DNA from: Candidatus Bathyarchaeota archaeon
GTDB lineage: Archaea > Thermoproteota > Bathyarchaeia > 40CM-2-53-6 > CAVXDP01
Reading direction: 5' to 3'
Assembly: GCA_963760485.1 (NCBI GenBank)
Contig: CAVXDP010000008.1
Span: 17,209 to 81,208, forward strand
DNA: 64,000 nt
Under the pieces are notes generated by a model that did not search any database, had not been told where the DNA came from, and saw nothing but the letters and a program-made list of their open reading frames with translations. Numbering within the stretch: position 1 is the stretch's first letter; each line of letters begins with the position of its first letter. Of the stretch, positions 1,693-59,248 are shown one piece after another. A program made the position numbers and the translations under genes.

Positions 1693-1704
1693 TGTTTTAT
1701 ATAG
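1693..1704 (+). promoter_or_regulatory. BRE/TATA-like box (TTTTATATA) about 60 bp upstream of the surface-protein gene
   Basis: TTTTATATA at 1695-1703 followed by an AAGGAG RBS-like motif at 1751-1756 before the ATG at 1764. Confidence 0.5.
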
Positions 1705-1763: not shown

Positions 1764-4700
1764 ATGAGTAAGAAAATTACTGCAGCATTTCTAGTATTGC
1801 TCTTTGCACTCTCAACAGTCCTAATTGCAACTCCAGTGCAAGGCCATTTTACACTTGGGCGTCCAACAAGTACAGTGCCTTATCGCGTACGTGATTTTGA
1901 CCCGCATGTTCCAGGTCCAACAGGTTATGTTTGGCCTGGATCAGGCGTAGTGAGTCTTAAGCACCGTACCCCAATCCGGGTAGTGGCGCTCCAAGCCCAA
2001 TAACTTGGGCTCAAGGACCATACCTTCCACCTGGATATCAGTCACCATGGAGCACGAACCCTCCAGGTGCTCAAAGTAGCTGGTACCAATTGGCTGGCAA
2101 CGCTTACGCACCTTTCGGAGCGATTCTAACCAGCACTGAAGATCATGACAACGTCGGTGACCTAATCTTTGCAATCAACTTCACAGGCACCCCTCCTACT
2201 ACAGAGGACTATCTCTATCACAGCCTCACAATATACTTGCCACCTGAATTCATTCCACCTGTAGACTGGGCAGCACCAACTGGTGACACGTCAAACATCG
2301 TGACAACCATAACAAACAATTACCTTCAGATTTCAGTTTGGAAGGCTGGCGTGAAAGATCCGTTCGGACCTGGATGGTGGGTCATATACATAAACCCCTG
2401 GTTGGGCTTCAGGAGAGATGGTAGTGCTAGCAGTGGGATCAATGTACCAGCGAACTATGGAAGGAATCCACGTGGAATCCTATTTAGCAAGTCGAACAAC
2501 TATGACGAGTGGTACTATGTACGAGTCAATGCGCATGAAAGCGCCAAGGATAGCCGGACGATACCAATTCAAGATGTTCCTCAGTGACAATTTTCCAGTA
2601 ACCAATGCGGTAAATGCTGACGGAACCCTCAACCCGATAGTTAGCACAATCCCTGCTGAGAACTGGCCAGTAATGCTTGTGAAAGGCGAAGTTGACCCAG
2701 GCATTATTGAAGGTACAATTCGCTATGGTTCATGGAACCAAGCATTATACAATTTGCCAATTCAACTTCCAGGCCGTGTAAGAGCGGTTGGAGTTGCAGA
2801 TGATCCATATACAGGCGCAAGCACAGGCCGCATGGTTGAAGCTCGTGGATACTTTAACGCTACAGCGAAGGGTCATTATGAGGTTGAAGGCATCGCTCCA
2901 GGTGTCTACGACATTTATGCGAGTGCAGCCGGATACCCAGAAATGAAAGTCGCAAGTGGCGTGAAGATTATCGCAGGCAAAAGTTTCCACGCAGACTACC
3001 TACTGCAACCAGGACCAATCATTACAGGCGTACTCTACAGTAAACATAGCTTCGGTGAAGTTCCATGGCCAAGCACAAGACCAGTCACAGTTGAAATTTA
3101 CGATAGTAATGAATGGCCATCAGCGAAGCCAGGCTACGATTGGGATTCAGCTGGAATGACATGGGAAGCCCAACACCTAAAGAGTTTCTCACCAATCAAC
3201 TTGACCGACTCACCATACACAAGCTACGTAACTGGTAACGTAATCTACGATCCAGGTAAAGGCTATGCAGACCTCAAGACGAGTGCGGGTAACCTACCAA
3301 AACTAGTTGCATTTCCATGGGAAGGCCCAAAGAGTATAGATCCACCTGTGATTACGTGGATCAACGGACAACCAGTAGCAACTGAATACCAAACAGAAGT
3401 CGGGGCTGGGGATACAACTACTGACAAAGACGTCTTCGGTTTGTTCAACGGTGTCGGACCAGCACAGTACTGGTGGGTTGACAACCTAGGCGCTTACACG
3501 AATGGTGGTGGAACGAATAGTTTCCGCTATCAATTCGGAATCAAAGGCTTCTATGGTGCACCAATGGAATTTGATGGTCACGTTCCACAAGTCTATGCGA
3601 CTTGGGTTAACGGTATGACCGCAGGCCAATACTACACTCGCGGTTGGATCAACGGTTACGTCCAAACAGACGTTAGCGGCACATACGTGGATTATCCATT
3701 CACGGTTGCAGCTGATGAATGGGCAGGTGACATTAACACTCCAATGGATCTTGAAACAGCAAGCTGGATAAACAAGACCGTACACTTCCACGATTTACCA
3801 GGAACACTGCAGACAAGTCCGATTAGGGGACCAGACCCGTGGAGGTATTTGATCGCTGAAGCATACGACGCAGACAATGTACTTGTGGCAATGAACTTCA
3901 CGCAAGTTCCGGCAACCTACACTGATGCTAACATAACATTGAACGGTTTCGGGATGGCGGGACCCGTTGTCCGAAACTACGGTGAGCAGAATGATGGAAC
4001 GAGAGGCCCAGGTGTTCCAAATGGCATGAAATTCTCCATGTACAGGTACCGCAATATCCGTGACTATGGCATTATGCCAGGCACGTACAGCATTCGCGTC
4101 TACATGCGTGGTTATGTACAACAAGAATTCGAGATGGCTTCAATCAGTCTAAGCCAAAGTCCAGCTTTGATCAGCAACCACATGTACCGTGGAGCAGGAA
4201 TCAACGTAACAGTATACAGCATAGACTGGGAGCACCCGCGGACAGACAAATATTGGACATTCTCCGGTGACGACGTACGAGTGTACGTACTCAACAGTGC
4301 AGGCACTAGCATGAACTACATCAAGTACTTCTCTAATACCCAAGCCCAGCCTAGGTGGAGTACTCCAGGCCAGAAGGCAGGCGTTACAACCATTCCGTTC
4401 GCAGGTACCCCGTATACTGATGCCGGCAAAAGCAAGCTAAAGTACAACGGTTCTTGGGAAGTGGACAGCTGGGGACCAGATGCTGAAGGTTGGCTACCAG
4501 GATATTACTATGATACTGACTGGTACAAGTACCTGTACACCGGCAGTACATTCTCAACTGGTATTGCACATCACGCATGGGGATTTGACGGCACTGCTAC
4601 CAAAACAGACGCACAGACCGGAATATGGCTAGAGTTTGGTTATGACAAGTATGGATTCCTTGCAAACCCAGGCAGATATCGCAACGCAGACCGAAGCACG

Positions 4701-5811
4701 AAACTTGCTCTAGAAACCGGCACATATACACTGAAAGGATACACTCTGGGTTACGTCCAGAAGAAGGACATCACAGTCTACGCTCAGAAAGGACAACAAT
4801 CAGATACAAAGCTTAACCTAGCTCAAGGCGTCAACATAACAGTTAACATCAAATTCAAGAAAGAAGGCATTTTCAGTGAGCTACCATACAACTCATCTTT
4901 CAGAATCAGAGTGTTCGATGACAATGGGGCACTAGTAGCTACATGGTTTACAACGTCGTATGACAAATCCGGCTTCTACACGGGGGTCATACAAGACGGC
5001 ATAAAAGCGTATGGTGGTTATGGCACAGGAAAAAAGCCCTACAGTAGCAGTTTGCCAAATGCTGGCGCAGACAAGAACTGGGTCGAAGATCACACAAATG
5101 AGTTGCAGGTACTATTCGCGGGGAACTACCTATTCCAAGAAATTGACCAATATGCCACGGTTCCAAAGGACAACAGATGGAGTACGTTCTATGGCATAGA
5201 TGGATGGCCGAACTACCAAGGCAACTACCACGTTGAAGTCGATGCTGTAAACCTGTACCAGAGCACTCAATCCTTCCCAGCTCCACAAGGCCTACTAGCT
5301 CGGTGAAAGCTACCACATAATCAACGGCGTCGAAGGACCATACCAAGGCGTATGGAAATTCAACCACCTAGGCCCATGGGAGCAGAAGATGGCTATTACG
5401 GTACCCAACGCTCATCTAGGTGCTGAAGCAAGTGTCGTCTTTGAACTTGACCTACGTGGCCTAGTCTCAGGACAGATTGCAGGTTTCAGCTGGAGCGATG
5501 AACTTCGGCCAACAAGCTGGGCATCAATCACAGCAGCAGGAGCAGGCGGAACCTTCACGGTATACTCGGCAGACGGATACTATGACATGTACCTTCCAGC
5601 AGGCACCTACGAATTCACAGTCATGGAATCGCCAGGACACGCAACGAAGAGTTCAAGCATAACCGTTAGCACAGGCCAAACAGTAACAGGCTACAGCTTC
5701 TACCTAGAACGAACCAACGTGCCAATTCCAGAATTTGGACCAGTCATAGCCCTCGTAGCAGCACTCGGAGCATCACTGTACATACTACGGAGAACCAGAA
5801 AAAGAGGGTAA
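1764..5811 (+). CDS. Large secreted cell-surface (S-layer-like) protein with C-terminal PEF-CTERM sorting signal, read across 3 apparent frameshifts
   Basis: Segments are 1764..2003 (signal peptide MSKKITAAFLVLLFALSTVLIATPVQG), 1961..2587, 2418..5306 and 5299..5811. Adding one C at the C4 run 1967-1970 joins the first two segments. Removing one base near the AAA at 2538-2540 joins the next. A 1-bp shift near 5296-5304 joins the 962-aa body to the tail ...PIPEFGPVIALVAALGASLYILRRTRKRG (PEF motif + TM helix + basic tail). The sequence is Y/W/G/T/N-rich, typical of archaeal surface proteins. Confidence 0.6.
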
Positions 5812-5817
5812 AGACCC

Positions 5818-5850
5818 TCCTTCTTTTCCTTTTTTGAACGTCCTTTCTTT
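5818..5850 (+). terminator. oligo-T terminator-like tract after the surface-protein gene
   Basis: CCTTCTTTTCCTTTTTTG then TCCTTTCTTT directly after the stop at 5811. Confidence 0.45.
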
Positions 5851-6261
5851 CACAGCGAAGGCTACCGCAAGAGGTACAAGGCTGCATACCGAGAAGACCT
5901 CAAGCGTTGGGGTGGAGAGTAGACTGAAATGCACGATTTCAAACCTTACCGCTAAGTGTTAAGACATCCCAAGTCTTAGGACATTCGGTAGCTGGAGCAA
6001 CTATTTTCATGTACTAATTCTTTTGGAGCAATATGTGAATTCTCCGGCAGTGTATCTCGGTTGTTTCGAGTTAACTGAACATTTGACTTCTTCGAGCCTA
6101 GACGCAAACCGAAGCCAAACACTCCGGTCAACAGTGATGTGCCCTAACCACCCAAACAGAGGCCAATATGGCACTCGACAAACGAACCGCGCATTGACAA
6201 ACAAGCCCCGACCTAACGCAGTGTGAACCGAGTTGTAAAGTTGGCCTCAGAATTCGTCCAT

Positions 6262-6477
6262 TCACGTCTTCTGAACGAAGAGTCCTATCGGAACAAATGC
6301 AACAAGGTCATGAAAAAGAGCCCAAAAAATAGTCTGAAGCACGCCAACCTCACCTGCGAAGAGTTCCCTCCAAACCAAGTACGCAGCAATCGCGACTGAT
6401 ATCATGGCATACTCTGCTCGATACAGACGAGAGCTAGCTTCCTGACAACTCGGGCCAAACCTCTTCTTGCCCGTCAA
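6262..6477 (-). CDS. small hypothetical membrane protein (71 aa)
   Basis: ORF with one clear hydrophobic helix (MISVAIAAYLVW...FHDLVAFVPIGLFV); no recognisable family. Confidence 0.25.
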   Translation of the reverse strand: MTGKKRFGPSCQEASSRLYRAEYAMISVAIAAYLVWRELFAGEVGVLQTIFWALFHDLVAFVPIGLFVQKT

Positions 6478-6683
6478 CTCTCGAATTACTGCGACAGGAG
6501 CTTATTTGAAACTCCCCTGAGAAGGTTCCGATGAAGAGGTCGAAAAGGGTCAGCTCTCTTTGCTGCATCCTCCAGCCTTTGGGATTCAATGGTGAGAGGT
6601 GGAACAGAGAAATCGGCCCAGGTAGATGAAAAGGCAGGCGCTAATGTGAAATAGTACGATTCATATTCTCTCTAAGAATTCAC

Positions 6684-7810
6684 ATGAAACCGATCACGAG
6701 ATGCGACGGCCTATCGAAGAGCAGTTATGTGAGGCGCGTGCAGCTTACCGGACACGGTTCGTACATTGTTTCTTTGCCGAAAGCTTGGGTTGAGGAGGCA
6801 GGGCTGAAGAAAGGGGGTCAAGTGCAATTCAGCAGGCAGCAACAGGCAGCTTGTGCTGACTCCCTTTGACGCAGTGGTAGCTGAAGATGAAAGAATGAGT
6901 TGCTCGACAACAGTACCGCCAGACACTAAAGGCGACTCGCTGGCCCGCAAGATTATCTCCCTTTACATAGTTGGTTTCACAACGATTCAGATAGATTCAG
7001 AAACTGGAAACCTTCCTGCCTCCGTCCGAGATGTCATCAGAGAGACAGCTAGAAACAAACTCGTTGGAACTGAAGTAGTCACTGAATCGTCTCGGAGCGT
7101 CCTGCTTCAGGTATTGTTGACGTCTCCGCAGCTAATGGTGACTGACGTTTTGAGACGAATGGGTACAATTGCGATATCGATGTTGCAGGATTCGATTACG
7201 GCGTTATCGAGCTTAGACGCGGAACTAGCTAAGCAAATCGTAAAGACTGATGATGAGATCGACAGGTTCAGCATATACATAATCAGGCAATTGAAGTTAG
7301 CTGTCCAACACCCGTCCTTTCTTGAAAGGGTTGGGCTCGCCTCTTCGGTAGAATGCCTTGCTTATCGGATTCTCTTCGGTAGAATGCCTTGCTTATCGGA
7401 TTACTACAAAGAGCATCGAGCGATCAGCAGACCACGCAGCCAGAATCGCACGAAACTCCTTACTGATTCGCAAACAGCTTGACCGTAATCTTGTCGAACG
7501 TCTCAAGACACTGAGCCAACAGTCTTCTGAGATGATGGATAACGCGCTGAAAGCTCTCTTTGCTAGTGACTATCAATTGGCCGAGAATGTTCTTCAGGGT
7601 AAAGAAGGAATTTCGGCACTAGAACGCAGGTTCGTGGAACATCTGCTGAGGCAAAGACTGCCCGCAGGTGACCTGTCTGCTGTTAGGCTGATTTCTGAAA
7701 GCCTTCTAAGGATCGGAGAGTACGCCACCGATATAGCTGAGGTTGTGCTTAATCTGACGGTTAGAAAATCAGTCGAATTAAGGGTTGGACCTTCTCCAAT
7801 AGAGACCTGA
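6684..7810 (+). pseudogene. AbrB/SpoVT-PhoU family phosphate-uptake regulator, disrupted (1-bp indel + 31-bp tandem duplication)
   Basis: The N-terminus GSYIVSLPKAWVEEAGLKKGGQVQFSRQ is an AbrB swapped-hairpin, followed by PhoU-like helical repeats. Three ORFs are in three frames (6684..6869, 6853..7482, 7358..7810). Removing one copy of the perfect 31-bp repeat 7341-7371/7372-7402 restores ...SSVECLAYRITTKSIERSADHAARIA... Confidence 0.6.
7341..7402. repeat. perfect 31-bp direct tandem duplication (CTCTTCGGTAGAATGCCTTGCTTATCGGATT x2) inside the AbrB-PhoU gene
   Basis: Read directly from the sequence. 31 is not a multiple of 3, so it causes a frameshift. Confidence 0.9.
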
Positions 7811-21124: not shown

Positions 21125-22766
21125 TTGGGAAAAAATATGGCATCTGAAGGCACTTTCATAAGGAAAGCAAGTGGCTTAGTCCGCACAGTTCCTCCAATAG
21201 ATGCTTGGATATACAATTGCCTCACAATGGGATGGCTTTCAGTGGCCGCCTATAACTTACCCTTCAACCCGTTTGCTTTTCCTGGTGGAGAGCAGAGTAT
21301 TGCAATACTCATGACCGCGGCGTTTGGCACGTTCATGTGGACGACGTACATGTTCATTGTAAGCGCTCTTCCACGTAGCGGAGTTGACTGGATAGCCCAG
21401 AGCAGATTTCTCAGTCCATGGATTGCGTTCCCTATAGTGATCGGAGACTTTTGGTACTTGATATACTGGGATGTCTGGGCATACTGGTTCGCAACGAACC
21501 TAGGAATGAACCCGTTCTTCGTTACGGCCGGTGTAGCGTGGAACAATCCTGGCCTTCTAGCATTTGGAGAATGGGTGATAACACCAAAGGGCTATTTCAT
21601 CATCGGAATGATCTTTCTGTTTCTCATGGGATGGCAACTATCGCTTCCGATAAAGTTCTTCGCATCGATTCAACGCTGGTTGATGTACACCGCAACAATA
21701 GCCTTGATCGTGTACATACTTATCTTTCTAGGTACGAATCCCACGTCATTTGCGGAGAACTTCAACGGGTTTGCTTCAAAATTCATTTCTGATCCTGACT
21801 ATTACCACACGGTCATCAGCACTGCTGCTGCCAGGCGGTTACAATCCGAATCCCGGGTTCAGTTGGTACGATCAGATAGGATTAATGGCTATGATATGGA
21901 GCCTTCTAGGATGGGCGTTTTGGAGTGCACAGTTGAGCGGAGAGATCAAGAGTGCCGGAAACCTAAGAACTCAGAACTTAGTCATGAATGGTTCAGGGTG
22001 GGCAACAGCATTTGCTTGGCTCGTTGTCTGGCTCGTGTTCTCCAATGCCATCGACCCGACGTTCATAAAGTCCGCCGGCGCAGTTTTCTACACTGGTAAA
22101 TGGGCTCTGCCTCTCTCAAGCATAAACTTGGGCATGTACATCGCCGCGACCGACGCGAAATTGGGATCAGTAGTCATGGTTGCTCTGTTTCTAGTCATGA
22201 TAGGATTGCTCGCCAACGCCTATCAGGTCTACTACAACACAATGGTGGGACCGGTGAGGATGTTTTTCGCAATGGCTTTCGACAGAGGTCTACCGGACAA
22301 ATTCACTATAGTTCACAGCAAATGGCATACGCCCGTGTACGTCATCTGGCTAGCATGTGCATGTGCAGTCATTCAAATTTACATGTCTTCATATATGCCT
22401 AATGTTGCACCGGTATTCCTTCCCGCAGCGCTGTCGAGCGGATGCATCCCATACACATTCACTTCTCTTGCAGGAGCTGTAATGCCATGGAGGGGCAAAG
22501 CCATATACGAAGCGTCGCCTGCTGCCAAATACAAACTAGGTCCAGTTCCTCTGGTCACCATTACGGGGATTGTCAGCGTGATCTTCAACATTGTAATGAT
22601 ATACTACTGGTTAACTGATCCTGCGCTCGGAATCAACCCACAATCAATGATCTTCGTATTCTTCTTCTACATTGTTGGCCTTGTCTGGTACATCTACTGG
22701 CGCTGGCACAGGAAGAGACAGGGAATAGATCTCAGCCTATCGTTCAAACTCGTTCCACCCGACTAA
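21125..22766 (+). CDS. APC-superfamily permease (about 540 aa), split by an apparent frameshift near 21829-21833
   Basis: Two ORFs (21125..22099, 21750..22766) in different frames; both are multi-TM. It is a paralogue of the 29857..31480 gene, with the same N-terminus (...RKxSGLxRxxxPxDA...) and C-terminus (...FKxxPPD). Confidence 0.6.
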
Positions 22767-27535: not shown

Positions 27536-28776
27536 ATGAGTCTAAAAGGAAATGAAACGAGACTTGGTGTAGCAAGGGTCGCCTTGTTCGACCAGCCGAA
27601 ACGGATAATCTTCGCCACAGGAGCTGTGGAACAATTCGTTGGGTCTGAGACGAAACGTCTGGGGGGCAATAAGACACTCTTAGTAACTGACAAGGGTGTG
27701 AAGAAAGCCGGCATGGCTGACACGGTCTTAGATCTCATCAAGAAAGAGAATCTTAGCGTGGATGTATATGATAATCTCACGGCTGAACCAACAGCAGAAA
27801 GCCTGAGAGCCGCAGTTAAGTTCGCTCGGGAAGGCAAGTACGATGCGGTTGTTGGAGTAGGCGGAGGCGCGGTGCATGGACACTGCGAAGATGAGTGCTA
27901 TTTGTCTTACAAACCCGGGAGATCCAATGGTATACGTGAATCCTATGGAGGACAAGAGCAAGTATCCGGCTAAGCCCAAGATACTAATCCCAACCACATC
28001 TGGAACAGGAAGCGAGGCCTCGAACGCCGCCGTAGTAGTTGAAGGATTATACAAAACTTGGGCGGCAAACACCAACGTTTTTGCTGATGTAGCTATCGTT
28101 GATCCATTGATGGCAATTTCATGTCCACCGAAACAGACAGCTGGAAGTGCACTGGATGCTCTAAGCCACAACGTTGAAGGGCTGATTGATAGAGAAGCTA
28201 ATCCTCTGTCGGACGCTCAAGCTCTTGAAGGCTCAAGACTTGTCTTCAAGTACGCAAGAAGAGCTTTCCATGCTGGCGACGATCTAGAGGCCAGATGGAA
28301 CATGTCAGCCGCAGCGACACTCGGCGGAATAGTCATCGCTTATCCATGGATAGGAGGTCCAGCAATCCTTGGGCATTGCATTTCAGAAGCTCTTGGACCA
28401 CGATGGAATGTTCCTCATGGAGCTAGCCTGCGGTGTAGTCCTTCCATACATACTTCAGTTCAACCTGCCATCATGCATCAAGAAACTTGCGTATGTTTCA
28501 AAACAGGTACTGGGAGACGAAGTCTACGGTCTTTCACAACGTGAAGCTGCCTTTGCTTTCATTCATGCTGTGAAGACTCTCATGGAAGACATGGAATTGC
28601 CAACGAACCTCAAGCAATGGAATATTCCAAGCAAAGAACTGGATGAATTCGCCGAGTATATCTTCAAAGATCGCCAACACGTCTATTGTCTTCCAAGATT
28701 TAACCCGAGGAAGCTTACATCAGAAAACACGAAAGAACTGCTGCACTTGATGTATGAGGGAACCCTGCTAGAGTGA
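27536..28776 (+). CDS. iron-containing alcohol dehydrogenase, split by two apparent 1-bp frameshifts
   Basis: Three ORFs in frames 2, 0 and 1 (27536..27973, 27876..28544, 28369..28776). The first ends AVVGVGGGAV and the second begins MDTAKMSAI (consensus GGGSxMDxAK). Downstream come NVPHGAS then ACGVVLPYILQFN (consensus PHGxANAxLLPxVxxFN). Confidence 0.65.
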
Positions 28777-29856: not shown

Positions 29857-31480
29857 TTAATCTGGGGGGATCTGTTTGAATTGTAGTTCCATCGGGATGC
29901 CTTTCATCTTGTGGTATGCACGAGATACGTAGTAAATGATGAATGATGGTGCTATGAACATTGTTATGGTTATCCATATGTAGAATGAGCTTGCGAGACC
30001 GGTCAGGAATGGCAGTAGCATGGAGTAGTCTAGGGCAACACTGATAATGAAAGTCAAGAGCCCAAGTATGAAGAGAACTGGAACTCCGCCAATCTTCTTC
30101 TTGACGATCTCAGGCGATTTCTCGAATATCGCCTTTCCCCTTGATGTGAATGGAAAGACCATGCCGACAACTCCAACTATCGCCCATGCAAAGAACCATG
30201 AAAGTATCGTGTAAGCGATCCATGATGCTTGATAGATGAATATGTACAGGAAGATCTCTCCGATTATCAATCCAAGCAATACGGCTGCCCATGGTGATCC
30301 TCGTTTGTCTGTTTTAGCGAAGAAGGTTGGGAGGACTCTGTCGAAAGAGTACGCGAAGATATTTCGAACCGGTCCGAAGGCGGCTCCCATACCTGCGGCG
30401 AACCATGTGATTGCAGCCATGGCGCAAGAAAGGACCGCGTAGCCAGCATTAGGGTTCGCGTAGACAAGCATAAAACTTGGCACAGGCATAATGGTTCCCA
30501 ATGGCCACCCCTGCCAAGTTCCAAATCCTGCGCCACCCGGCGCGAAATATGATGCTCCGGAGCCCAGAATTCTCCGCTGAACCCATAGTATGCAAGGGAA
30601 TAGAAAAGCTCCCAGAATATGAATAGGAGTATTAATGCTCCCAGCATAGCTCGCTATAGCTGCCTTTCTTATCTCCTTCACTTCGCCCATTATATTCGCG
30701 GTGTAGGTTGATCCTAGAGTATTCAGAGCCACGAAGGTGATTCCAGCGCCGAGAGACACATTCATGTCGTATAATCCGACAGGCCATTTGGCAGCCTTTG
30801 CTGCATCCAAAACCGCTTGGTAAGTAGTACCCGACATCATGTTGAATCTTTCAATAAACGTCGGAAGCCCTCCGCCTGTAAGGACTCCAATGTCAAAGAT
30901 CACGAGGGAAAGGACACCGGAAATCACTCCAATCCAAGAAAGAATCATGGCCGACTCTTGCTCCTCTCCACATGATTAGGAATTCCACGACTACGAGAAG
31001 ACCACCTACTAGCATCATTCCAATAGGAGCGTCTATTGAGTTGGCGAGGAGCCAATACGGGTGGGTGCTAGCCAACTTTCCAAGCTCGGAAATTGCGATG
31101 GTTCTCAGAACATTGTTGATACCAAATCCGACAGCGAGGTATGTGAGGCTACCTGCCCATGAAGCTCCGATTGTGGTTAGAACCCAACCTGCAGAGAATC
31201 CCCATGCTGGAGAGAGTATGCGGCTCCCCCAAATGTACTCGCCTCCCGAGCGTGGCATAGCTATCGAGAACCAGATGTAGAGAAGGGCTGGAATGAACAT
31301 CAGTAGTACAGCCGGGATGACGGCGATCGGTACATTCACACCCGGATAAGCCTGATGTGTCCAGAGAAGAAGAATGTTGCAATTAGCAATGCCCGGCGTC
31401 ATGAATGCAAAGGCTAAGGCATCCCATGGTCCTATGACTCGCGTGAGCCCAGATGTTTTTCTGATGAAAACTTCCGTCAA
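29857..31480 (-). CDS. APC-superfamily permease paralogue, split by an apparent frameshift near 30945-30955
   Basis: ORFs 30893..31480 and 29857..30948 lie in different frames; both are multi-TM. Ends ...MELQFKQIPPD like the paralogue at 21125. Confidence 0.6.
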
Positions 31481-38543: not shown

Positions 38544-38981
38544 ATGGGCTCCACGAGTGCTCAAACAACTACTTCAACTACTGTTGTCACCACAGTGACC
38601 TATCAAGGAACAGAGTTGAAACTGCAAGTCACGAGTAATTCAACTATTTCAGGCTTGAGTTTCAACAAGAATACACGATTGATGAACTTCACAGTGAGTG
38701 GCCGCGATGGAACAAATGGTTTCTGCAGCGTTCACATATCGAAGGAGCTGTTAGATGGAAAACCAATTGTTCTACTGGATGGAAACCAAATACAAGCTGG
38801 TGTAAGTCAAGACGAAGCCAACTACTATGTCTATTTCACATACAATCATAGCAGTCACAATGTAGCGATTGGGGGATCTAACTCCATACCTGAATTTCTA
38901 TATGCTTTGACTACGTTGCTGTTGGTCTTGAGTGTTCTTCTGTTTGCAACGAAGACAAAACGTAGATATTGTCAAATGTAA
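38544..38981 (+). CDS. PEF-CTERM domain protein (Thr-rich, no detectable N-terminal signal peptide in-frame)
   Basis: C-terminus ...SNSIPEFLYALTTLLLVLSVLLFATKTKRRYCQM has a PEF motif + TM + basic tail. The N-terminus MGSTSAQTTTSTTVVTTV lacks a hydrophobic signal, and an in-frame stop lies upstream at 38499-38501. Confidence 0.5.
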   Translation: MGSTSAQTTTSTTVVTTVTYQGTELKLQVTSNSTISGLSFNKNTRLMNFTVSGRDGTNGFCSVHISKELLDGKPIVLLDGNQIQAGVSQDEANYYVYFTYNHSSHNVAIGGSNSIPEFLYALTTLLLVLSVLLFATKTKRRYCQM

Positions 38982-41436: not shown

Positions 41437-42617
41437 TCTTCGCTGGGTAGTGTTTTCTGTCGAATAGGCTACTGGTCATCTGCATGATACAAAGGCCTAT
41501 CCAATGAATCTCTTATAAGGATCCTCATTAGAAGGCCTTTGTATCTCTTCTAAGCATCCTCATTGGAAGGCCTTTGTATCTCTTCTAAGCATCCTCATTG
41601 GAAGGCCTTTGTATCTCTTCTAAGCGATCCTCATTGGAAGGCCTTTATATCTCTTCTAAGCATCCTCATTGGAAGAGCCTTTGTATCTCTTCTAAGCATC
41701 CCATGGATGCTTAGAAGAGCATATGAAGGCCTTCCAAGCATCAAGGATCCTTAGAAGGCCTTTGTATACTATAAGCCTTCCAATGAATGCCTTGGATGCT
41801 TAGAAGAGCATATTAGAAGGCCTTCCAATGAATACAAAGGATCCTTTAGAAGAGCCTTCATATGCCTTCTAAGAATCCTCATTGGAAGGCCTTTGTATCT
41901 CTTCGAAGAGATCCTCATTGGAAGGCCTTTGTATCTCTTCAAAGGATCCTCATTGGAAGGCCTATTGTATCTCTTCGAAGCATCCTCAATGGAAGGCCTT
42001 TGAAGAGATACATAAGCCTTCCTCAATGAAAGGATGCTTAGAAGAGATACAGAGGCCTTCCAAAGAATACATGGATGCTTAGAAGAGATACAAAGGCCTT
42101 CCAATGAATACAAAGGATGCTTAGAAGAGATACAAAGGCCTTCCAAAGAATACAAAGGATGCTTAGAAGAGATACAAAGGCCTTCCAATGAATACAAAGG
42201 ATGCTTAGAAGAGATACAAAGGCCTTCCAATGAATACAATGGATGCTTAGAAGAGATACAAAGGCCTTCCAATGAATACAAAGGATGCTTAGAAGAGATA
42301 CAAAGGCCTTCCAATGATACAAAGGATGCTTAGAAGAGATACAAAGGCCTTCCAATGAATACAATGGATGCTTAGAAGAGATACAAAGCCTTCCAATGGA
42401 ATACAAAGGATGCTTAGAAGAGATACAAAGGCCTTCCAATGAATACAAAGGATGCTTAGAAGAGATACAAAGGCCTTCCAATGAATACAAAGGATGCTTA
42501 GAAGAGATACAAAGCCTTCCAATGAATACAAAGGATGCTTAGAAGAGATACAGAAGGCCTTTGTATCATGCAGATGACCGGTAGCCTATTCGACAGAAAA
42601 CACTACCCAGCGAAGAC
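41437..42617. repeat. ~1.2-kb compound palindrome of tandem repeats
   Basis: The left array (about 41521-41700) holds about 5 tandem 35-bp units TCATTGGAAGGCCTTTGTATCTCTTCTAAGCATCC. The right array (about 42030-42555) holds about 13 tandem 42-bp units GGATGCTTAGAAGAGATACAAAGGCCTTCCAATGAATACAAA. These are the reverse complement of the left unit plus an ATACAAA insertion. A scrambled orientation-switching centre lies between them, and the whole structure is bracketed by a 60-bp inverted repeat (41437-41496 vs 42556-42617, 1 mismatch). ORFs inside it (MEGLCISSKHPLYS...) are repeat artefacts. Confidence 0.9.
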
Positions 42618-50802: not shown

Positions 50803-51105
50803 ATGGTGGACCCTTTGGTTAAGAAATCTACCGGATACCGTTCTAGAACGAGAGCACTGTTTCGAAAGAACCCTAGGGAGAAAGGCAAGTTGGGTTTGAG
50901 TAGGATACTTAGAGCCTACAAGGCTGGGGACAAGGTTTGTGTAACAATTGATCCAAGCGTGCACAAAGGCATGCCTCACAGAAGATTTCAAGGCAGAGTC
51001 TGTGTAATCGAAGGAAAACGTGGCAGAGCCTATGTGGTTAGTCTAACAATAGGCAACAAAGAAAGAAGTCTGATAGTAAGACCGGAACACATTACTCCAA
51101 TGTGA
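50803..51105 (+). CDS. rpl21e: 50S ribosomal protein L21e
   Basis: 100 aa; KGMPHRRFQGRV motif. Confidence 0.8.
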   Translation: MVDPLVKKSTGYRSRTRALFRKNPREKGKLGLSRILRAYKAGDKVCVTIDPSVHKGMPHRRFQGRVCVIEGKRGRAYVVSLTIGNKERSLIVRPEHITPM

Positions 51106-51115
51106 GTGAGCGATA

Positions 51116-51454
51116 ATGCCGCGAAAAGTGATTGAGGAGAAGAGAGTTGCAGTAGCAGATGCTAGAAAGGTCCTTGAGAAAGCAAAACCGGAAGAACTAG
51201 GCGAATTTCAAAGACGCACACTGGACTATACGGTGAAGTTTTCGAAACTGCCTGGACAAGAAGCATCGAAACTTACGGATACATTGGTTAGCCAGTTCAA
51301 GCTTGAAAGATCTGACGCCATACAGATTGTCAACTGTATGCCAAACACGGCAGAAGAGCTAAGGGCTATCCTCGCGGTCAAGGGTCGGCTAATCCCCATC
51401 ACTCAGCTGGATGATGTTCTGAAAGTAGTCAACAATCATCGCAAGGCAGAGTAG
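51116..51454 (+). CDS. rpoF: DNA-directed RNA polymerase subunit F (Rpb4-like)
   Basis: 112 aa; conserved position after L21e and before DUF655. Confidence 0.6.
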   Translation: MPRKVIEEKRVAVADARKVLEKAKPEELGEFQRRTLDYTVKFSKLPGQEASKLTDTLVSQFKLERSDAIQIVNCMPNTAEELRAILAVKGRLIPITQLDDVLKVVNNHRKAE

Positions 51455-51632
51455 CGCGGTTTCGTTCGCAACCTATTTTAACTTCAACGGGATCTACTTT
51501 TAGCGGAAAAGTGATGGTGGATTCTATGCTGCTCAACCCGACGTCAGGTGGGACTGAAAGACCACTAGATCACAGAGTGGAAACACTGAATCCATTCGAA
51601 TAGTTTCTGAACCCAAGAAGGGAGCAAGAAAG

Positions 51633-52259
51633 TTGAGCAGCACCGATAGGCAATACAAGGTGACAGAAAGTGCTACCTCTTCTTCTATTAGACAGTATTC
51701 TCCGAAGGTGTACGAGGAGTACGCGTATGTGCTAGACATACTTCCCTATGGAAGACCAACGTCTGAAAGATCTAGGCATATGGCTGTTCCATCAATTCAA
51801 GTCGTTGGAGAGAGTTTTTTCACGCTCTTGGAAGCTCAACTAAAACCAGGCGCATCCGTGAATATTCGAGAGAGAATATACGTAGGACGGGACCGAAGAG
51901 AAAAAATTGATCGTGTAATAGGGCGCGTGGGAAAGGAAGAACTAACTGTTGGGGCTCAAGCAGAAATTCAATCCGTGATAGAGGAGATAGCCAGAAACCA
52001 AGAGAAACGGTTTGTTGACTTCTTCGACAAAGCTCAAGCTGTTACGCCGAGAATGCATGCTCTGGAGCTTCTTCCTGGAATTGGGAAGAAACTGATGTGG
52101 CAGATAATCAATCAGAGAGACAAGAAACTATTCGACAGTTTCGCTGACATAAGAGAAAGAACAGGTATCACTGACCCAGCCAAACTTATTGCAAAAAGGG
52201 TCATTGAAGAACTCGGTGGCGAATCAAAATATAGGCTCTTCACGAGGACGATCCAGTGA
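51633..52259 (+). CDS. DUF655-family protein (HhH-containing, RNA-binding)
   Basis: 208 aa with HhH LELLPGIGKKLMWQII; conserved archaeal neighbour of rpoF/ksgA. Confidence 0.6.
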   Translation: MSSTDRQYKVTESATSSSIRQYSPKVYEEYAYVLDILPYGRPTSERSRHMAVPSIQVVGESFFTLLEAQLKPGASVNIRERIYVGRDRREKIDRVIGRVGKEELTVGAQAEIQSVIEEIARNQEKRFVDFFDKAQAVTPRMHALELLPGIGKKLMWQIINQRDKKLFDSFADIRERTGITDPAKLIAKRVIEELGGESKYRLFTRTIQ

Positions 52260-53071
52260 CGTGCGATTTGCAGTCAGCCTTTCTTGGATTCAAACCTAAC
52301 AGACGATATGGCCAGCACTTCATGATTGACGACCACTTACTGAACAAACTAGTACGGTACATATCTCCGACAAAACATGACGCCATCCTTGAAGTCGGAT
52401 CTGGAAACGGTACCCTGACTTCACTACTGGCAGAACAGGCAGGAAAAGTAATCGCGATCGAAAAGGACCCCAGACTAGTGAAGTTACTGAAAGAAAGATT
52501 TGGCACGCAAAGTGCTATTGAAATAATAGAGGGCGACGTCCTGAAAGCAAAGCTTCCAATATTCAACAAGGTCGTTTCAAATCTTCCTTACTGTATATCA
52601 TCCAAGTTCATGCTTTTCCTTACCAAGAGAACGTTCGAACTGGCAGTCTTGACGTTACAAAAGGAATTTGCACAGAAACTCGTTGCAAGAAACAAAACCT
52701 CTGAATATGGAAGAATAGGAGTTCTAGTTCAACATAGGATGAATGTGAACATGCTTGACCTCGTCCCTAGACAAGCCTTCTATCCGAGGCCGAAAGTAAC
52801 CTCCGTGATAGTAGCCTTGAGTCCAAAACATGATCTCCATAGAGTAGTCGATGAAATACTCTTTGACGAATTGGTTCGGGGACTATTCACCCAAAGAAGG
52901 AAGAAAGTGGAGAGAGCTCTGGCTTATTACATACGGTCAAAGATTGGAATGCCAGATCAGAACCTCGTTAGAGAATCGAATCCGCCCAACTCAAGAGTAT
53001 ATGAGATGGCCGTAGAAGAATTTGAAGAACTCTCAAACAGAGTAAGCTTAAGTCTAAAAGAGAGATCCTAG
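52256..53071 (+). CDS. rsmA: 16S rRNA (adenine1518/1519-N6)-dimethyltransferase KsgA/RsmA
   Basis: GQHFMID start; SAM motif LEVGSGNGTLT; NLPY motif. Confidence 0.85.
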   Translation: MTCDLQSAFLGFKPNRRYGQHFMIDDHLLNKLVRYISPTKHDAILEVGSGNGTLTSLLAEQAGKVIAIEKDPRLVKLLKERFGTQSAIEIIEGDVLKAKLPIFNKVVSNLPYCISSKFMLFLTKRTFELAVLTLQKEFAQKLVARNKTSEYGRIGVLVQHRMNVNMLDLVPRQAFYPRPKVTSVIVALSPKHDLHRVVDEILFDELVRGLFTQRRKKVERALAYYIRSKIGMPDQNLVRESNPPNSRVYEMAVEEFEELSNRVSLSLKERS

Positions 53072-53092
53072 CACCGATCAGCATCAATTTCG

Positions 53093-53797
53093 GTGACAAG
53101 ATCTTTGGGCGTGAAAGTGGTTCTCGTCGAACCATTATATGAAACGAACGTAGGTCATATCGCACGGGTAATGAAAAACTTCGGCCTCGATGACCTATGC
53201 ATCATCAACCCTCGGATCGAGTTGGGAAGAGAATCAAGAATCTTCGCGGCCCATGCAAAAGACGTCCTAGATAACGTCAAGATCTCAAGGTCGCTTAGCA
53301 AGGCGATAGCAGATGCAGATATTACCATCGGTACTACAGCTCGACCCGGAAAATCAAGTAGAAACGTACTTAGGTCAACAATTGATCCAACGACTGTTGC
53401 CCGAAGGGCCATTTCAAACAAGGGGAAAGTGGCAATTGTTCTGGGAAGAGACACCACAGGCCTCTCAAACAAAGAGTTGAGCCTCTGTGATCTGACACTT
53501 ACAATCCCGACTAACCCAGAATACCCGACAATGAACGTATCACACGCTGCCGCTGTAATCTTCTATGAACTGTTCAAAGTCTGCCGCAAGAAGAGGAACT
53601 CAAAGGAAAGGATCCCCGACAAGAAAGTTATGAACAGGTTGATGGGATTCTTCAACGAACTGGCGGCACGTAGTGAGCTTCCGACTCATAGACGCAAGTT
53701 GGCCAACAGAGCATTTCGTAACATAATATCTCGTTCATTCATAACACAGCGTGAGACATCACTTCTGATGGGCGTATTTCGAAAGAACCTGAGATGA
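53093..53797 (+). CDS. SPOUT-class (SpoU/TrmH/TrmJ-like) RNA 2'-O-methyltransferase
   Basis: VVLVEPLYETNVGHIARVMKNFG ... IVLGRDTTGLS ... TIPTNPEYPTMNVSHAAAV. Confidence 0.7.
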   Translation: MTRSLGVKVVLVEPLYETNVGHIARVMKNFGLDDLCIINPRIELGRESRIFAAHAKDVLDNVKISRSLSKAIADADITIGTTARPGKSSRNVLRSTIDPTTVARRAISNKGKVAIVLGRDTTGLSNKELSLCDLTLTIPTNPEYPTMNVSHAAAVIFYELFKVCRKKRNSKERIPDKKVMNRLMGFFNELAARSELPTHRRKLANRAFRNIISRSFITQRETSLLMGVFRKNLR

Positions 53798-53836
53798 ATA
53801 GACGAGGACGACTGGGAATTAGAATGGTCAACTAAG

Positions 53837-53847
53837 TCTTTATATAA
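53837..53847 (+). promoter_or_regulatory. TATA box (TCTTTATATAA) upstream of L10e
   Basis: TTTATATA at 53839-53846, about 40 bp before the inferred GTG start. Confidence 0.45.
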
Positions 53848-53884
53848 CGACCCAAAGGCTCTATGGGCTGACAAAATCCTCAAG

Positions 53885-54425
53885 GTGGCTAGTCACGAAA
53901 GGTAGAAGTTACCGAATTCCCAACGGGCAACCTTACACTAGAATGAAGTATATCCACGGGGCACCAGTATGTAAGGTACAGAAGTTCACCATGGGCGATT
54001 CCAAAGCAACCTATCAGTACAAGGTTTCACTTATTGCAGAGAGCCGAGTTCAAGTTCGACATAATGCTCTCGAAGCAGCACGGGTATCAGCAAACAAAGT
54101 GATGTCTGACAAGCTTGGCGAGACAGGATACCTATTGAAAGTAGTAACATATCCACATGTAATCTTACGGGAGAACAGAATGATCGCCACCGCCGGAGCG
54201 GACAGGCTGCAGGAAGGTATGAGGCGGTCATTTGGTAAACCGAATGGAAGGGCAGCGATAATAGAATTAAACACATCGGTTCTCAACATATACGTAAATG
54301 AATCGGGATTGGAGCACGCCAAGGTAGCAATGAAGGTATCATCATCAAAGTTGCCCATGGCCTGTAGAGTTTCTGTTGAGAAGATTGAGTCACAAGTGGC
54401 TAGTGTTCCTGCTCAACCAGCATAG
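53885..54425 (+). CDS. rpl10e: 50S ribosomal protein L10e (uL16); N-terminus recovered only by removing one A from the A3 run at 53898-53900
   Basis: The ORF-track product starts MKYIHGAPVCKVQKFTMGD. In-frame upstream lies ...GRSYRIPNGQPYTRMKY (consensus ARCYRYxKNKPYxKSRF) with no in-frame start. GTG at 53885 in the -1 frame gives VASHE, then 1 bp out of frame. Confidence 0.7.
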
Positions 54426-54524
54426 TGTAACCGTACAAAGATAGTCAAAACCCTTTTATCCGTGGGTCAGGGATGACTGAACGATTTCACATAGTCTACA
54501 TTATCATGAGATTGGTGTTGATGG

Positions 54525-56922
54525 ATGCCAGCGAAAGATGAGAAATACGTTCTCTGGTTTGATGATCTTGGGAAGGATGAGGTTGCACTCGTAGGAGGCA
54601 AATCTTCAAGCCTCGGAGAAATGACGCAAAAAACCAACGTCGCAGTCCCGTATGGCTTTGCAACTACAGCCGCTGCATACAGGCACTTCATCAAACAGGC
54701 CAAACTAGATTCAAAGATTGCAGATGCTATGAAGGAACTAGTCGACCCGAACGATACCAGAACTCTACAGAAGGTTGGAAAGACGCTCAGGACACTGGTC
54801 CTTGAGTCGAAGATGCCGAAGGACCTTCACGACGAGATTGTAGCAGCCTATAAGCAACTTGCGAAGAAAAGTGGGGATCCAAGCCCATACGTGGCAATTC
54901 GTTCATCTGCAACGGCTGAAGATCTGCCGGATGCCAGTTTCGCTGGACAACAAGAGTCCTACCTGAACGTGTCAGGTGGAGATCAAGTTTCTGAAAGGGT
55001 TAAGGAATGCTACGCTAGCCTCTTCACGGACAGAGCGATATTTTACCGTGCTCAGAAAGGCTTCGATCATATGGCTATTGCTCTTTCAGGCAGCAGTTCA
55101 AATGATGGTATACTCGAAAGCAGCTGGAGTTATGTTTACGCTCAACGTCTCGAACGGAGACGAAAGCCAAATCCTGATAGAAGCGGCGTATGGACTCGGA
55201 GAATTTGTGGTGCAGGGAACCGTCACACCAGACGAATATTATGTGAATAAGAGCGATCTGAAAATTTCCAGCAAGAACGTTCCAGAAAAAACTCGTCAAC
55301 TTTCTAGAAAGTCCGATGGGGGCACGTATGAATCAGAGGTGCCGAGTGAACTTAGGATGAGACAGGTCATAACAGACGAGCAGATCAAGGAACTCGCGGG
55401 TTACGCTCTGGATATAGAGAAACATTACGGGCGCCATATGGATATAGAATGGGGATTGGACGATAGGAATAACAAGCTGTGGATACTGCAAGCTAGACCA
55501 GAAACCGTGTGGAGCTTCAAGAAAGGTCCGACGAAAGTTGAAGCTAAACCCTCCGTGCAGACTGAAAGAAAAGTCATAGTAAAGGGTTTACCCGCTTCGC
55601 CAGGAATGGCTGCAGGCAAAGCCCACGTTATAATGTCGGTTACCGACATTAACCAATTCCAGCAGGGAGAGCTCCTTGTCACCGAGATGACAGCTCCAGA
55701 CTGGGTTCCTGCCATGAGAAAGGCGAAGGCCATCGTAACCAATAGTGGTGGAACGACTTGCCACGCAGCCATAGTAAGTCGTGAACTTGGCATCCCCTGC
55801 ATAGTTGGAACAGCTAGCAAAGGTACACCGGGAACTAAAGCCATACAAAACCAATCAGAAATCACCGTTGATGCAGGGAACGGCGTAGTCTACGAAGGGA
55901 TACTGGAGGAAGCAGTGAAAGGACCTGAGGAACGTGGAATGGCTGTAGCTGTCGCAGCGGAATCATATCCAGTAACGGGAACAAAGATTCTCGTGAACCT
56001 CGGTGAACCTGAGATAGCTGAAAGGACCGCCAAACTACCATGTGATGGAGTTGGCCTAATGAGAGAAGAGTTCATTTGGGCATCAGACATCAACCAGCAT
56101 CCACTTCACCTAATTGAGATGGGCCAACCTCAGAAAGTTGTTGACAAACTGGCCGAAGGAATGAGGAAAGTCTGTGCCGCAATGAATCCAAGGCCAGTAG
56201 TCTTACGATTTAGTGACTTCAAATCCAGCGAGTATCGAGATCTAGAGGGTGGCGATAAGTATGAACCTGCTGAGCCATCCGCTCTTCTGGGATGGCGTGG
56301 AGCTTCAAGATACTACGATCCCAAATACACGGAAGCCTTCAAGCTTGAGGTAAAGGCTGTCATGAAAGTCCGCGAAGAGTACGGGCTGAAGAACCTATGG
56401 GTGATGTTACCCTTCGTTCGCACTCTCGAAGAAGTAAGAAAAGTCGTACAAATCATAGAAGGAGAGGGATTGAGAAGAGGCCCTGACTTCAAGATTTGGC
56501 TGATGGCAGAGATTCCAAGCAACGTAATACTGGCCGATCAATTCAACAAGTTCATTGACGGCTACAGTATAGGCTCAAACGATCTTACGATGCTCATTCT
56601 CGGCTGCGACAGGGATAATGCAACTGTGGGTCACATCTTTGACGAACGGGACCTAGCGGTGAAGAGGGCGATAAGACACCTCGTCGAGGTTGCTCATAGA
56701 GACGGCAAGACCGTATCCATTTGCGGCCAAGCACCGAGTGTATACGGGCCAGAATTTATCCGATTCTTGGTTGAGAGCGGAATCGATTCTATGTCAGTGA
56801 ACCCGGACGCCGTGGTGCAAGTTAGAAAATGGGTTGCAGGCATCGAGCAAAGACTGATACTGGAAAAGAGTTTGGGTCGAGGTGTACTGGAAGACTCACA
56901 GCTTGGATGGGACCCAAAGTAA
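54525..56922 (+). CDS. ppsA: phosphoenolpyruvate synthase (PpsA), interrupted by a 1-bp insertion at about 55089
   Basis: ORFs 54525..55250 and 54976..56922 together span 799 codons. Frame 0 ends ...DHMAIALSG and frame +1 continues (A)AVQMMVYSKAAGVMFTLNVSNGD...IEAAYGLGEFVV (consensus MAIALSVGVQKMVRSDKAGVMFT). The C-terminus has the PEP-utilising His domain and TIM-barrel. Confidence 0.85.
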
Positions 56923-57055
56923 TTCAATTGACGACTCGCTTGGTATAGGCGCGGCGACTAGACTGTCGCCGGTGTTGAAATCTGTGTTGATAATGGAAAT
57001 GGTAATCTGAGAGTTAGTCTACTCCATTTCGGCTCGTGTTAAGCTGTTCTCAACG

Positions 57056-58072: not shown

Positions 58073-58679
58073 GATGGTTCTCGAACATATACCTGCTCAT
58101 CCTACTCCCAAGATACAACTTGAACAATATACAATCACATCTTCAGTAGCTTCGGAACTTCTTTTCCTAGCTGCGAGATTACACAATGACGTGAGTGACA
58201 GACGTGTGATAGATCTCGGTTGCGGAACAGGCAGACTAGCGATTGGGGCAGCCCTTCTGAACGCCAAAGAGGTTGTCGGGGTGGATCTTGATACCACGGC
58301 TGTGGACGTCGCCAGAAAGAGTTCTGAGAGAATGAGCGTCAAGGATAGAACTCAATGGGTAGTCTCTGATTTGAACGGAGTTAGCGGTAGATTTGATACA
58401 GTACTTCAAAATCCGCCATTCGGAGTAAGGAAGAAGGGCGCTGATCGAGTTTTCATGCAGAAAGCCTTGGATATAGCAGACGTAATCTATTCTTTACACA
58501 AGAGCGGTGCAAGAAACAGAGTATTTATTAAAAGCCTAGTTTCAAAGCATAAAGCTACTATCACAGATCTATACCAAATGACGTTTGTGATTCCTCACAT
58601 ATTCAGATTTCACTCTAAGAGGGAACATGTCGTCCTGGTGGATCTCTACAGGGTTGTGACAGATGCAGCCAAAAAATGA
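58008..58679 (+). CDS. SAM-dependent methyltransferase (NPPF/NPPY-motif, METTL5/HemK-like)
   Basis: DLGCGTGRLAIGA (motif I), VLQNPPFG (motif IV). Overlaps the dph2 end, so the true start is probably the ATG at 58038. Confidence 0.65.
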   Translation: MQSAKNVGKTMEGMFLSKKQLEMVLEHIPAHPTPKIQLEQYTITSSVASELLFLAARLHNDVSDRRVIDLGCGTGRLAIGAALLNAKEVVGVDLDTTAVDVARKSSERMSVKDRTQWVVSDLNGVSGRFDTVLQNPPFGVRKKGADRVFMQKALDIADVIYSLHKSGARNRVFIKSLVSKHKATITDLYQMTFVIPHIFRFHSKREHVVLVDLYRVVTDAAKK

Positions 58680-59235: not shown

Positions 59236-59248
59236 AAGGGGATTTCTT

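Follow-up and report, generated by a model that had tools for sequence, protein, structure and literature searches.

Four open reading frames in a Bathyarchaeia contig as one probable surface protein gene, with a sortase-type C-terminal tail

The sequence analysed here is a 64,000-nt stretch of Candidatus Bathyarchaeota archaeon contig CAVXDP010000008.1 (hereafter the window, to which all coordinates refer). Four consecutive open reading frames (ORFs) at 1764-5811 represent a single gene for a secreted, C-terminally anchored surface protein of 1,348 amino acids (aa), most probably divided into four by an artefact of the deposited assembly. The three frameshifts that separate them are very probably sequencing or assembly errors (single-base insertions) rather than biology. 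We read them as an artefact because unrelated genes in the window are hit alike, near-identical contigs lack the extra bases, and splitting of the gene across its family follows assembly type.

One gene in four open reading frames

The ORFs lie on the plus strand at 1764-2003 (79 aa, frame 0), 2090-2587 (165 aa, frame 2), 2418-5306 (962 aa, frame 0) and 5389-5811 (140 aa, frame 1), with frames numbered 0, 1 and 2. A reading made from the sequence alone had joined them into one gene for a protein of about 1350 aa, with the C-terminal anchor belonging to the large protein. In the stop-codon map, frame 2 is open at 1961-2585, frame 0 at 2394-5304 and frame 1, which encodes the tail, from 5299 to the stop at 5809, as had been proposed. 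The open stretches of frames 2, 0 and 1 overlap in turn, and each passes the reading on to the next.

We compared the window with homologues by tblastn of three proteins (P0002, P0003 and P0004). Intact homologues are 1,319-1,346 aa long and 67-70% identical to the window gene, and the four fragments, read in order through frames 0, 2, 0 and 1, account for homologue residues 1-1319 with zero residues missing. Identity remains at 66-80% in each of the four fragments, with no additional stops or decay. Because the four ORFs are collinear with intact homologues, the signal peptide and the PEFG/transmembrane/RRTRKRG tail are placed in one protein, and on this comparison 1764-5811 is a single gene, in agreement with the sequence-only reading.

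The gene is preceded by a TATA-box-like TTTATATA (1696-1703, plus strand; 61-68 nt 5' of the start codon), a putative archaeal promoter, and by a GGAG motif at 1752-1755, 8 nt 5' of the ATG start codon at 1764, which resembles a Shine-Dalgarno sequence. A strong promoter and a ribosome-binding site had been claimed here; both motifs are present, but TTTATATA occurs twice in the window and at least two copies were reached in 34 of 100 shuffles, so its count is not above chance. Both window copies are located upstream of genes. The second (53839-53846) stands about 100 nt 5' of the ribosomal protein L10e gene (53943-54425), which is consistent with TTTATATA marking strong archaeal promoters here.

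Fragment 1 (1764-1958, frame 0) aligns with homologue residues 1-65 at 75-80% identity and contains the predicted Sec-type signal peptide MSKKITAAFLVLLFALSTVLIATPVQG (1764-1844), after which the mature protein would begin with His. At the first junction (J1, 1959-1978) the reading passes from frame 0 to frame 2, a net change of -1 (or +2). Either one base has been lost, for example in cccc at 1969-1972 or after 1960, or two single bases have been inserted about 20 nt apart (ctt[a]agc ... tcc[g]ggt); the two-insertion version reads GVVSL-STVPQS-GSGAPSP, near the GVVTLSTAPNVGSGAPSP of P0149. Fragment 2 (1979-2530, frame 2) corresponds to homologue residues 68-250 (69-73% identity) and ends at the second junction (J2, 2531-2534), where one surplus base in aat gCgc atg moves the reading from frame 2 to frame 0; the homologues read N-G-M. 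Fragment 3 (2535-5297, frame 0), which public annotation gives as a separate 923-aa protein (P0001), covers homologue residues 252-1149 and encodes a body of tandem beta-sandwich domains, one of them CarboxypepD_reg-like. The third junction (J3, 5298-5300; frame 0 to frame 1) again holds one surplus base, T5300 in the alignment. Fragment 4 (5301-5811, frame 1) takes in homologue residues 1150-1319, which align to 5299-5808. The last of the CarboxypepD_reg-like domains falls within it (about 5509-5688), ahead of the C-terminal signal, which consists of PEFG (5728-5739), a transmembrane helix (5740-5787) and RRTRKRG (5788-5808), then the stop codon (5809-5811). All of these features are on the plus strand, as is a T-rich tract just 3' of the stop (ttcttttcctttttt, 5822-5836), a plausible archaeal terminator. 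The junctions had been proposed at 1967-1970, about 2538 and 5296-5304, close to where we find them.

The repaired product has no Cys and 10 N-x-S/T sequons. Gly (10.8%), Thr (8.2%), Tyr (7.2%) and Trp (3.1%) make up much of it, as earlier described for the body, and the Sec signal peptide and PEFG tail described with it are likewise present. It is a secreted, C-terminally anchored protein of the cell envelope or surface. The signal peptide would direct export through Sec; the exported chain would consist of a family-specific N-terminal beta-sandwich domain and a string of immunoglobulin (Ig)-, CnaB- or CarboxypepD_reg-like beta-sandwich domains, and would be retained at the surface by a tripartite C-terminal signal of an IPIPEFG motif, a hydrophobic helix and an Arg/Lys cluster.

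Pfam recognised CarboxypepD_reg-like beta-sandwich domains only, including the final domain ahead of the tail. The N-terminal domain (fragment 2, a conserved beta-sandwich) had no match in Pfam or NCBIfam, and a sequence search of the PDB with the family profile gave 0 matches. An AlphaFold 2 (AF2) model of the body (residues encoded by 2535-5303) is nearly all beta, with a predicted local distance difference test score (pLDDT) of 67 and a predicted template-modelling score (pTM) of 0.68. Foldseek matched this model only to arrays of CnaB/Ig-like domains (Gram-positive pilins, adhesins and B. anthracis TIE, with SlaB at rank 30), at a TM-score on the query of at most 0.15; the modelled body thus appears to resemble known folds in single domains only. 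The N-terminal domain was modelled with a pLDDT of 65.6, and its fold search returned nothing at E <= 1e-3.

The N-terminus has a further feature. At least 90% of the family have the His at mature position 1, after the predicted cleavage site (alignment H33), and an invariant His follows about 20 residues later in HVPGP (alignment H53); in the window this region is 1845-1925. The N-terminal domain also weakly matches the copper-binding protein YcnI (7me6_B; probability 0.98, TM-score 0.50 on the target, E 0.013). A histidine-brace metal site at the mature N-terminus is possible, with the AF2 model being of low confidence in this region.

Origin of the frameshifts

The frameshifts to be repaired are not a property of this gene. 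They are part of a pattern of single-base insertions which runs through the whole window and which near-identical short-read assemblies do not show. The 64 kb contain at least 11 net +1 frameshifts, at least eight of them outside this gene, and at least seven genes are affected; single-base insertions occur at a rate of about one per 5-6 kb across the whole window. By frame arithmetic every event outside this gene is net +1, and J1 alone departs from this.

The other split genes were recognised by Pfam profile coordinates that adjoin across neighbouring ORFs. The iron-containing alcohol dehydrogenase (Fe-ADH) gene is in three pieces, at 27536-27973 (Fe-ADH 1-93), 27876-28544 (Fe-ADH 93-168 and ADH_Fe_C 1-93) and 28369-28776 (ADH_Fe_C 93-191), and the phosphoenolpyruvate (PEP) synthase gene is in two, at 54525-55250 (PPDK_N 2-168) and 54976-56922 (PPDK_N 169-322). 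An AbrB-PhoU regulator gene is likewise broken into three pieces (6684-7810) and two amino-acid permease genes into two each (21125-22766 and 29857-31480), while a Ribonucleas_3_2 gene has a frameshift at about 59752 caused by an extra A.

Near-identical contigs cover three of the affected sites (5300, 55089/90 and 59752), and at all three the short-read contigs (97.5-99.6% identity) are without the extra base. A 22.6-kb ENA contig (L092), whose short-read status we take from its k141_ name, is 99.53% identical to window positions 51055-64000 and differs by only two indels, both of them extra window bases within genes. One is a G at 55089/90 in the PEP synthase gene, which is intact in L092 (798 aa), and the other is the A at 59752, which is missing from both L092 and a JGI contig (L093). 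Within the surface protein gene itself, JGI contig L010, 97.5% identical to window positions 4985-6799, lacks the extra base of J3; it reads CTACTAGC-CGGTGAA (...GLLAGESYHII...) and continues in a single frame down to the PEFG tail. A JGI fragment (P0122) is also uninterrupted at J3.

The splitting also follows the type of assembly. Three publicly annotated fragments of the gene, P0147 (79 aa), P0001 and P0121 (140 aa), each occur only on this 159,449-bp contig. On three other large NCBI contigs the orthologues (P0011, P0124, P0125 and P0198) are broken as well, but at different positions. We further collected 80 loci of the family from species-representative genomes, the window's own genome not being among them, and in 74 of these the gene runs in a single frame from signal peptide to tail. 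Multi-frame copies make up 6 of the 16 loci from MFD metagenome-assembled genomes (MAGs) with 'contig_' records, which we take to be long-read assemblies from the naming of the records and the contig sizes, compared with 0 of the 64 other loci.

Several points weigh against assembly error as the explanation. At J1 and J2 the support comes only from homologues of 65-73% identity: our metagenome scan for near-identical sequence gave none across either junction, yielding only L010, which spans J3, and a protein search with the repaired N-terminus gave nothing above 70% identity across J1/J2. The 92% identical P0223 begins downstream of both junctions and itself carries a frameshift. At 97.5% identity L010 is another strain, and J3 could in principle be a strain-specific mutation. 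Some long-read platforms, moreover, would not usually produce insertions outside long homopolymers, where several of these lie.

These points leave some room, though little, for a genuine pseudogene, in which this strain would have lost the surface protein through three frameshifts, perhaps by genome decay or surface variation. The frameshifts do stand in the deposited sequence and are annotated as separate ORFs, the contig without the J3 insertion is only 97.5% identical, and with two to five paralogues per genome one copy could be dispensable. A pseudogene is nevertheless improbable given similar lesions in at least seven genes within 64 kb, PEP synthase and Fe-ADH among them; apart from J1 the lesions are all net +1 insertions, relatives of 99.5% identity are intact at both sites compared, every fragment has kept its identity to the homologues, and split copies follow assembly type across the family. 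Programmed ribosomal frameshifting or other recoding, for which nothing speaks beyond the frame changes themselves, is ruled out in practice by the single frame of L010 and the intact homologues, with three changes of differing direction in one gene, no slippery heptamers at 2531-2534 and 5298-5300, and the same lesions in unrelated genes also standing against it.

In the organism itself the protein is very probably produced at its full length. There is nothing surprising in kind about the gene or the protein, and the practical lesson concerns assembly quality: insertion errors leave four "hypothetical proteins" in place of one major surface protein and mask an architecture that runs from signal peptide to anchor. 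At least seven genes of the window suffer from these errors, so the gene content and pseudogene counts of this genome and of similar assemblies should not be trusted without polishing.

The C-terminal tail and its candidate sorting enzyme

The window tail reads VPIPEFG-PVIALVAALGASLYIL-RRTRKRG, with a 16-residue hydrophobic stretch between the motif and the basic cluster. Across the family the pattern is (S/T)x-IPIPE-[F/L/Y/M], a helix and Arg/Lys residues, with P, P and E each conserved in at least 90%. The motif is carried by 79 of the 120 listed homologues (55 PEF, 19 PEL, 3 PEY, 1 PEM and 1 AIPEL-type). Exosortase and archaeosortase cargo is defined by just such a motif, helix and basic cluster, and the tail can reasonably be read as a tripartite signal of the archaeosortase type.

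The sequence-only reading had gone further and assigned the tail to PEF-CTERM. By the model that defines this class (TIGR03024) the isolated tail scores 13.3 bits (E 0.074) against a cut-off of 23, and the 140-aa ORF gives no match at all. The best sorting-domain match is PGF-CTERM (TIGR04126), at 24.4 bits against a cut-off of 24.5 (20.9 bits within the ORF), while PEFG-CTERM (TIGR04296) gives no match at E <= 10. Weak matches only were found for 46 family tails, to PEF-CTERM in 20, Loki-CTERM in 14, PEFG-CTERM in 10 (best E 0.0054) and PGF-CTERM in 5. Because the tail falls under the curated cut-off, filing it as PEF-CTERM is not justified, although the resemblance in kind is real.

An 'ArtE-type' archaeosortase had been expected as the partner. 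The literature pairs PEF-CTERM with archaeosortase C, ArtC, instead (PMC5244752, PMC9723798), and in Nitrososphaeria, the sister class, PEFG-CTERM proteins are known from the membrane or the cell surface (PMC6593220, PMC9122916). The archaeosortases that we found in Bathyarchaeia are thaumarchaeosortase-like. They came from clustering all ORFs with multiple transmembrane segments in the related loci; filtering such ORFs for a C[SAT]G motif gave nothing useful, as these enzymes carry Ser in place of Cys.

Archaeosortase-family genes were identified in three loci of other Bathyarchaeia (L050:21827-22807, L054:14401-15525 and L055:14578-15753). The L050 protein passes the exosortase/archaeosortase signature TIGR04178 (39.3 bits, cut-off 23). 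Its best subfamily is thaumarchaeosortase (TIGR04297), at 103.8 bits and below the cut-off of 250; the ArtC model gives it 26.9 bits (cut-off 100). A paralogue of the window gene ending in ...NIPVPEFS...RRRR stands about 0.9 kb 5' of the sortase gene, on the same strand, in L054 and L055; in L050 the sortase gene is 8.4 kb downstream of the paralogue. At E <= 1e-5 the L054 protein matches 204 homologues; PF09721 is present in nearly all of them, and JGI names many "thaumarchaeosortase". All 120 thaumarchaeosortase-like proteins of Bathyarchaeia that we compared (P0231-P0350) read [YF]WPSVGV[QH]S, and 93 of the 120 have no cysteine anywhere; the NxxRI and DAFH motifs are retained.

The most likely reading is that, after Sec export, the IPIPEF-helix-Arg tail is recognised by the thaumarchaeosortase-like enzyme of the lineage. 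By analogy with ArtA and PGF-CTERM, this enzyme would cleave near PEF and re-attach the protein. No sorting-domain model, however, gives the tail a score that reaches its curated cut-off, and the 64-kb window contains no archaeosortase, its ORFs with multiple transmembrane segments being ABC permeases, amino-acid permeases, ZIP and TauE. Exosortases and archaeosortases have their catalytic Cys within a C-S-G motif; Ser sits at this position in the Bathyarchaeia proteins, so their sortase chemistry is uncertain.

A simpler possibility, which we consider less likely but worth keeping in mind, is that the helix is a permanent transmembrane anchor, as in many surface proteins of Thermoproteota, and that PEF is not a sortase site. 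It gains from the sub-threshold model scores, the lack of an archaeosortase in the window and the missing canonical Cys, as well as from the rarity of linkage, a sortase gene being within 10 kb of the family gene in only 3 of the 80 loci. Yet a plain anchor makes it hard to explain why IPIPE is nearly invariant directly before the helix when paralogues are only 35-45% identical elsewhere. The layout of motif, helix and basic cluster is also that of known cargo, thaumarchaeosortase-like genes occur widely across these metagenomes, and two loci have one immediately 3' of a paralogue. A bolder extension of the sortase reading, which we regard as doubtful, would make the tail the cargo signal of a distinct Ser-type branch of Bathyarchaeia thaumarchaeosortases, with the multi-paralogue ~1,300-aa family as its chief cargo and as the main component of the Bathyarchaeia cell envelope; His1, together with the weak YcnI-like fold, might in addition mark a metal-binding histidine-brace head domain.

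Another Bathyarchaeia lineage (L094, L095 and L096) has a thaumarchaeosortase-like gene 157 bp 3' of a gene for a 921-961-aa protein (L094:6959-9844), followed by a GT87-like glycosyltransferase gene. This may be an envelope-biogenesis cluster. The 921-961-aa protein has internal and C-terminal transmembrane segments. We considered the 961-aa protein directly upstream of the L094 enzyme as cargo and ruled it out, as it has no PEF-type motif.

A second PEF-CTERM protein had been proposed in the window, at 38544-38981 (plus strand). This Thr-rich protein of 145 aa does end in IPEF, a transmembrane segment and KTKRR (SNSIPEF-LYALTTLLLVLSVLLFA-TKTKRRYCQM), but the scan with sorting-domain hidden Markov models gave no match, its N-terminus (MGSTSAQTTTS...) is not hydrophobic, and no signal peptide was found in any upstream frame. 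The ORF is not a truncation artefact, because gene calls on three short-read contigs (L003-L005) give an identical protein of 145 aa. Lacking a signal peptide, it makes an unconvincing sortase substrate and probably stands outside the same sorting system; it may be a tail-anchored membrane protein.

Further downstream are two abutting inverted tandem-repeat arrays, one of a 35-bp unit repeated 14 times (41508-42002, 76% matches) and one of a 42-bp unit repeated 13.5 times (41998-42561, 94% matches), with CTTAGAAGAGAT...GGCCTTCC as their common core. None of the ORFs called in this region (41769-42490, minus strand) has a credible family match, and the short-read contig L003 ends inside the repeats. 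Rfam and tRNA scans of the window gave no matches.

The protein family, its possible roles and known systems

A protein search with the 962-aa ORF gave more than 600 relatives, most of them 1,200-1,350 aa long. The best non-self full-length matches share 63-70% identity and most others 37-53%, at 61-96% query coverage. The nearest intact relatives (P0002-P0009, 63-70%) have the same signal peptide and tail, for example ...SNIPIPEFGAIMALVTTLGASVFVLRRTRRKG. The few named relatives are Bathyarchaeia or Thermoproteota entries called "carboxypeptidase regulatory-like domain-containing protein". On these sequence comparisons the window protein is a member of a large, unnamed, Bathyarchaeia-restricted family of surface proteins of about 1,250-1,350 aa, with two to five paralogues per genome. 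Nearly all records come from Bathyarchaeia MAGs; the exceptions are four bacteria-labelled MAGs, which account for 7 of the 80 loci. Three of these, SMAG_U14762 'Methylomirabilota' (L019, L030 and L073), SMAG_U15265 'Acidiferrales' (L039 and L080) and SMAG_U11098 'Acidoferrum' (L046 and L058), have two or three family-bearing contigs each. The bacteria-labelled bins are probably contaminated, mis-binned or mislabelled.

In 40 of the 80 loci the family gene is preceded, about 67 bp upstream on the same strand, by a gene for a CARDB-repeat protein of about 430 aa with a signal peptide and a C-terminal transmembrane anchor (e.g. L042:7936-9237). Genes for an ABC-2 permease and an ABC ATPase occur near the family gene in about 40 of the 80 loci (L012-L091). 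Together the CARDB protein, the ABC-2 genes and the family gene have the look of a surface module that has been conserved. Such a context is missing around the window copy, where a ModE-like regulator lies upstream and a PhoU/Pst cluster lies downstream; its synteny is not shared by the closest homologues.

The sequence-only reading saw the hallmarks of an S-layer protein or another major surface protein. A secreted, anchored surface protein stands, but no S-layer family or specific fold was matched. We consider it possible rather than probable that this is the S-layer protein, the main lattice-forming protein of the envelope in this Bathyarchaeia lineage; it may have a surface-layer or adhesin role. 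It is a large protein with a signal peptide, no Cys, an array of beta-sandwiches and a C-terminal anchor, its gene has a consensus TATA box and a Shine-Dalgarno motif, the family is conserved across Bathyarchaeia, and SlaB is among the Foldseek matches. An S-layer has also been seen by electron microscopy in Bathyarchaeum tardum (PMC10477458), which we count in favour.

Other observations argue against an S-layer role. The comparison with S-layer families gave 13-21 bits for S_layer_anammox (a local match only; cut-off 1,400) and 11-12 bits for halo_surf_glyco (cut-off 400), the PDB yielded no sequence matches, and the fold matches are generic. The presence of two to five paralogues per genome argues, weakly, against a single lattice protein, and in half of the loci the gene has an ABC-2 transporter and a CARDB-repeat membrane protein for company, a setting that would better suit an accessory module of the surface. 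In an AlphaFold survey, the S-layer nominees of Bathyarchaeia are mostly of other lengths, at 791-1,055 aa, with single nominees of 1,132, 1,168, 1,397 and 2,022 aa (bioRxiv 10.1101/2024.05.28.596244).

Whichever its role, a multi-copy family of ~1,300-aa proteins with a sortase-type signal, present throughout the lineage, is a sensible target for envelope proteomics, and the thaumarchaeosortase-like genes that adjoin some copies strengthen the case. Few archaea on Earth are as abundant as Bathyarchaeia, whose cell envelope is, to our knowledge, essentially uncharacterised. The thaumarchaeosortase-like enzymes themselves are the more interesting leads.

Among known systems, the tail can be compared with three archaeal sorting pairs. 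The PGF-CTERM/ArtA system of the S-layer glycoprotein in Haloferax volcanii shares a large secreted protein with a C-terminal motif, helix and Arg-rich cluster, and supplies the best, marginally sub-threshold model match. The motif is nevertheless PEF rather than PGF, the lineage is Thermoproteota rather than Halobacteriota, the protein body is unrelated and no ArtA was found. PEF-CTERM/ArtC, known from Methanosarcinales, ANME-2 and Archaeoglobus, has the literal PEF and the tripartite layout, and its model weakly matches 20 of the 46 family tails, but both the window tail and the Bathyarchaeia sortase homologue remain below the respective cut-offs. PEFG-CTERM and thaumarchaeosortase of Nitrososphaeria, the sister class within Thermoproteota, offer the literal PEFG with helix and basic cluster, and the sortase genes adjoining the paralogues match thaumarchaeosortase best. 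This pair differs in that the window tail has no TIGR04296 match, with weak matches in 10 of the 46 family tails, and in the sub-threshold sortase score; the last motif residue also varies in the Bathyarchaeia family (F/L/Y/M), and the G after PEF is not conserved.

The protein as a whole has two further counterparts. Like the S-layer proteins of Thermoproteota (SlaA/SlaB of Sulfolobales and the p4 ones predicted for Bathyarchaeia), it is large, secreted, rich in beta-sandwiches and membrane-anchored, with SlaB as a Foldseek match; unlike them, it belongs to a multi-paralogue family, has no sequence homology to them and differs in length from most Bathyarchaeia nominees. The sortase-anchored pilins and adhesins of Gram-positive bacteria (SpaA, PitA, SdrD and B. 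anthracis TIE) use another family of sorting enzymes in another domain of life, and the likeness is confined to single domains (TM-score 0.1-0.15 on the query, ~9% identity). They are, however, the top structural matches, and they too are strings of CnaB/Ig-like domains that end in a C-terminal sorting signal.

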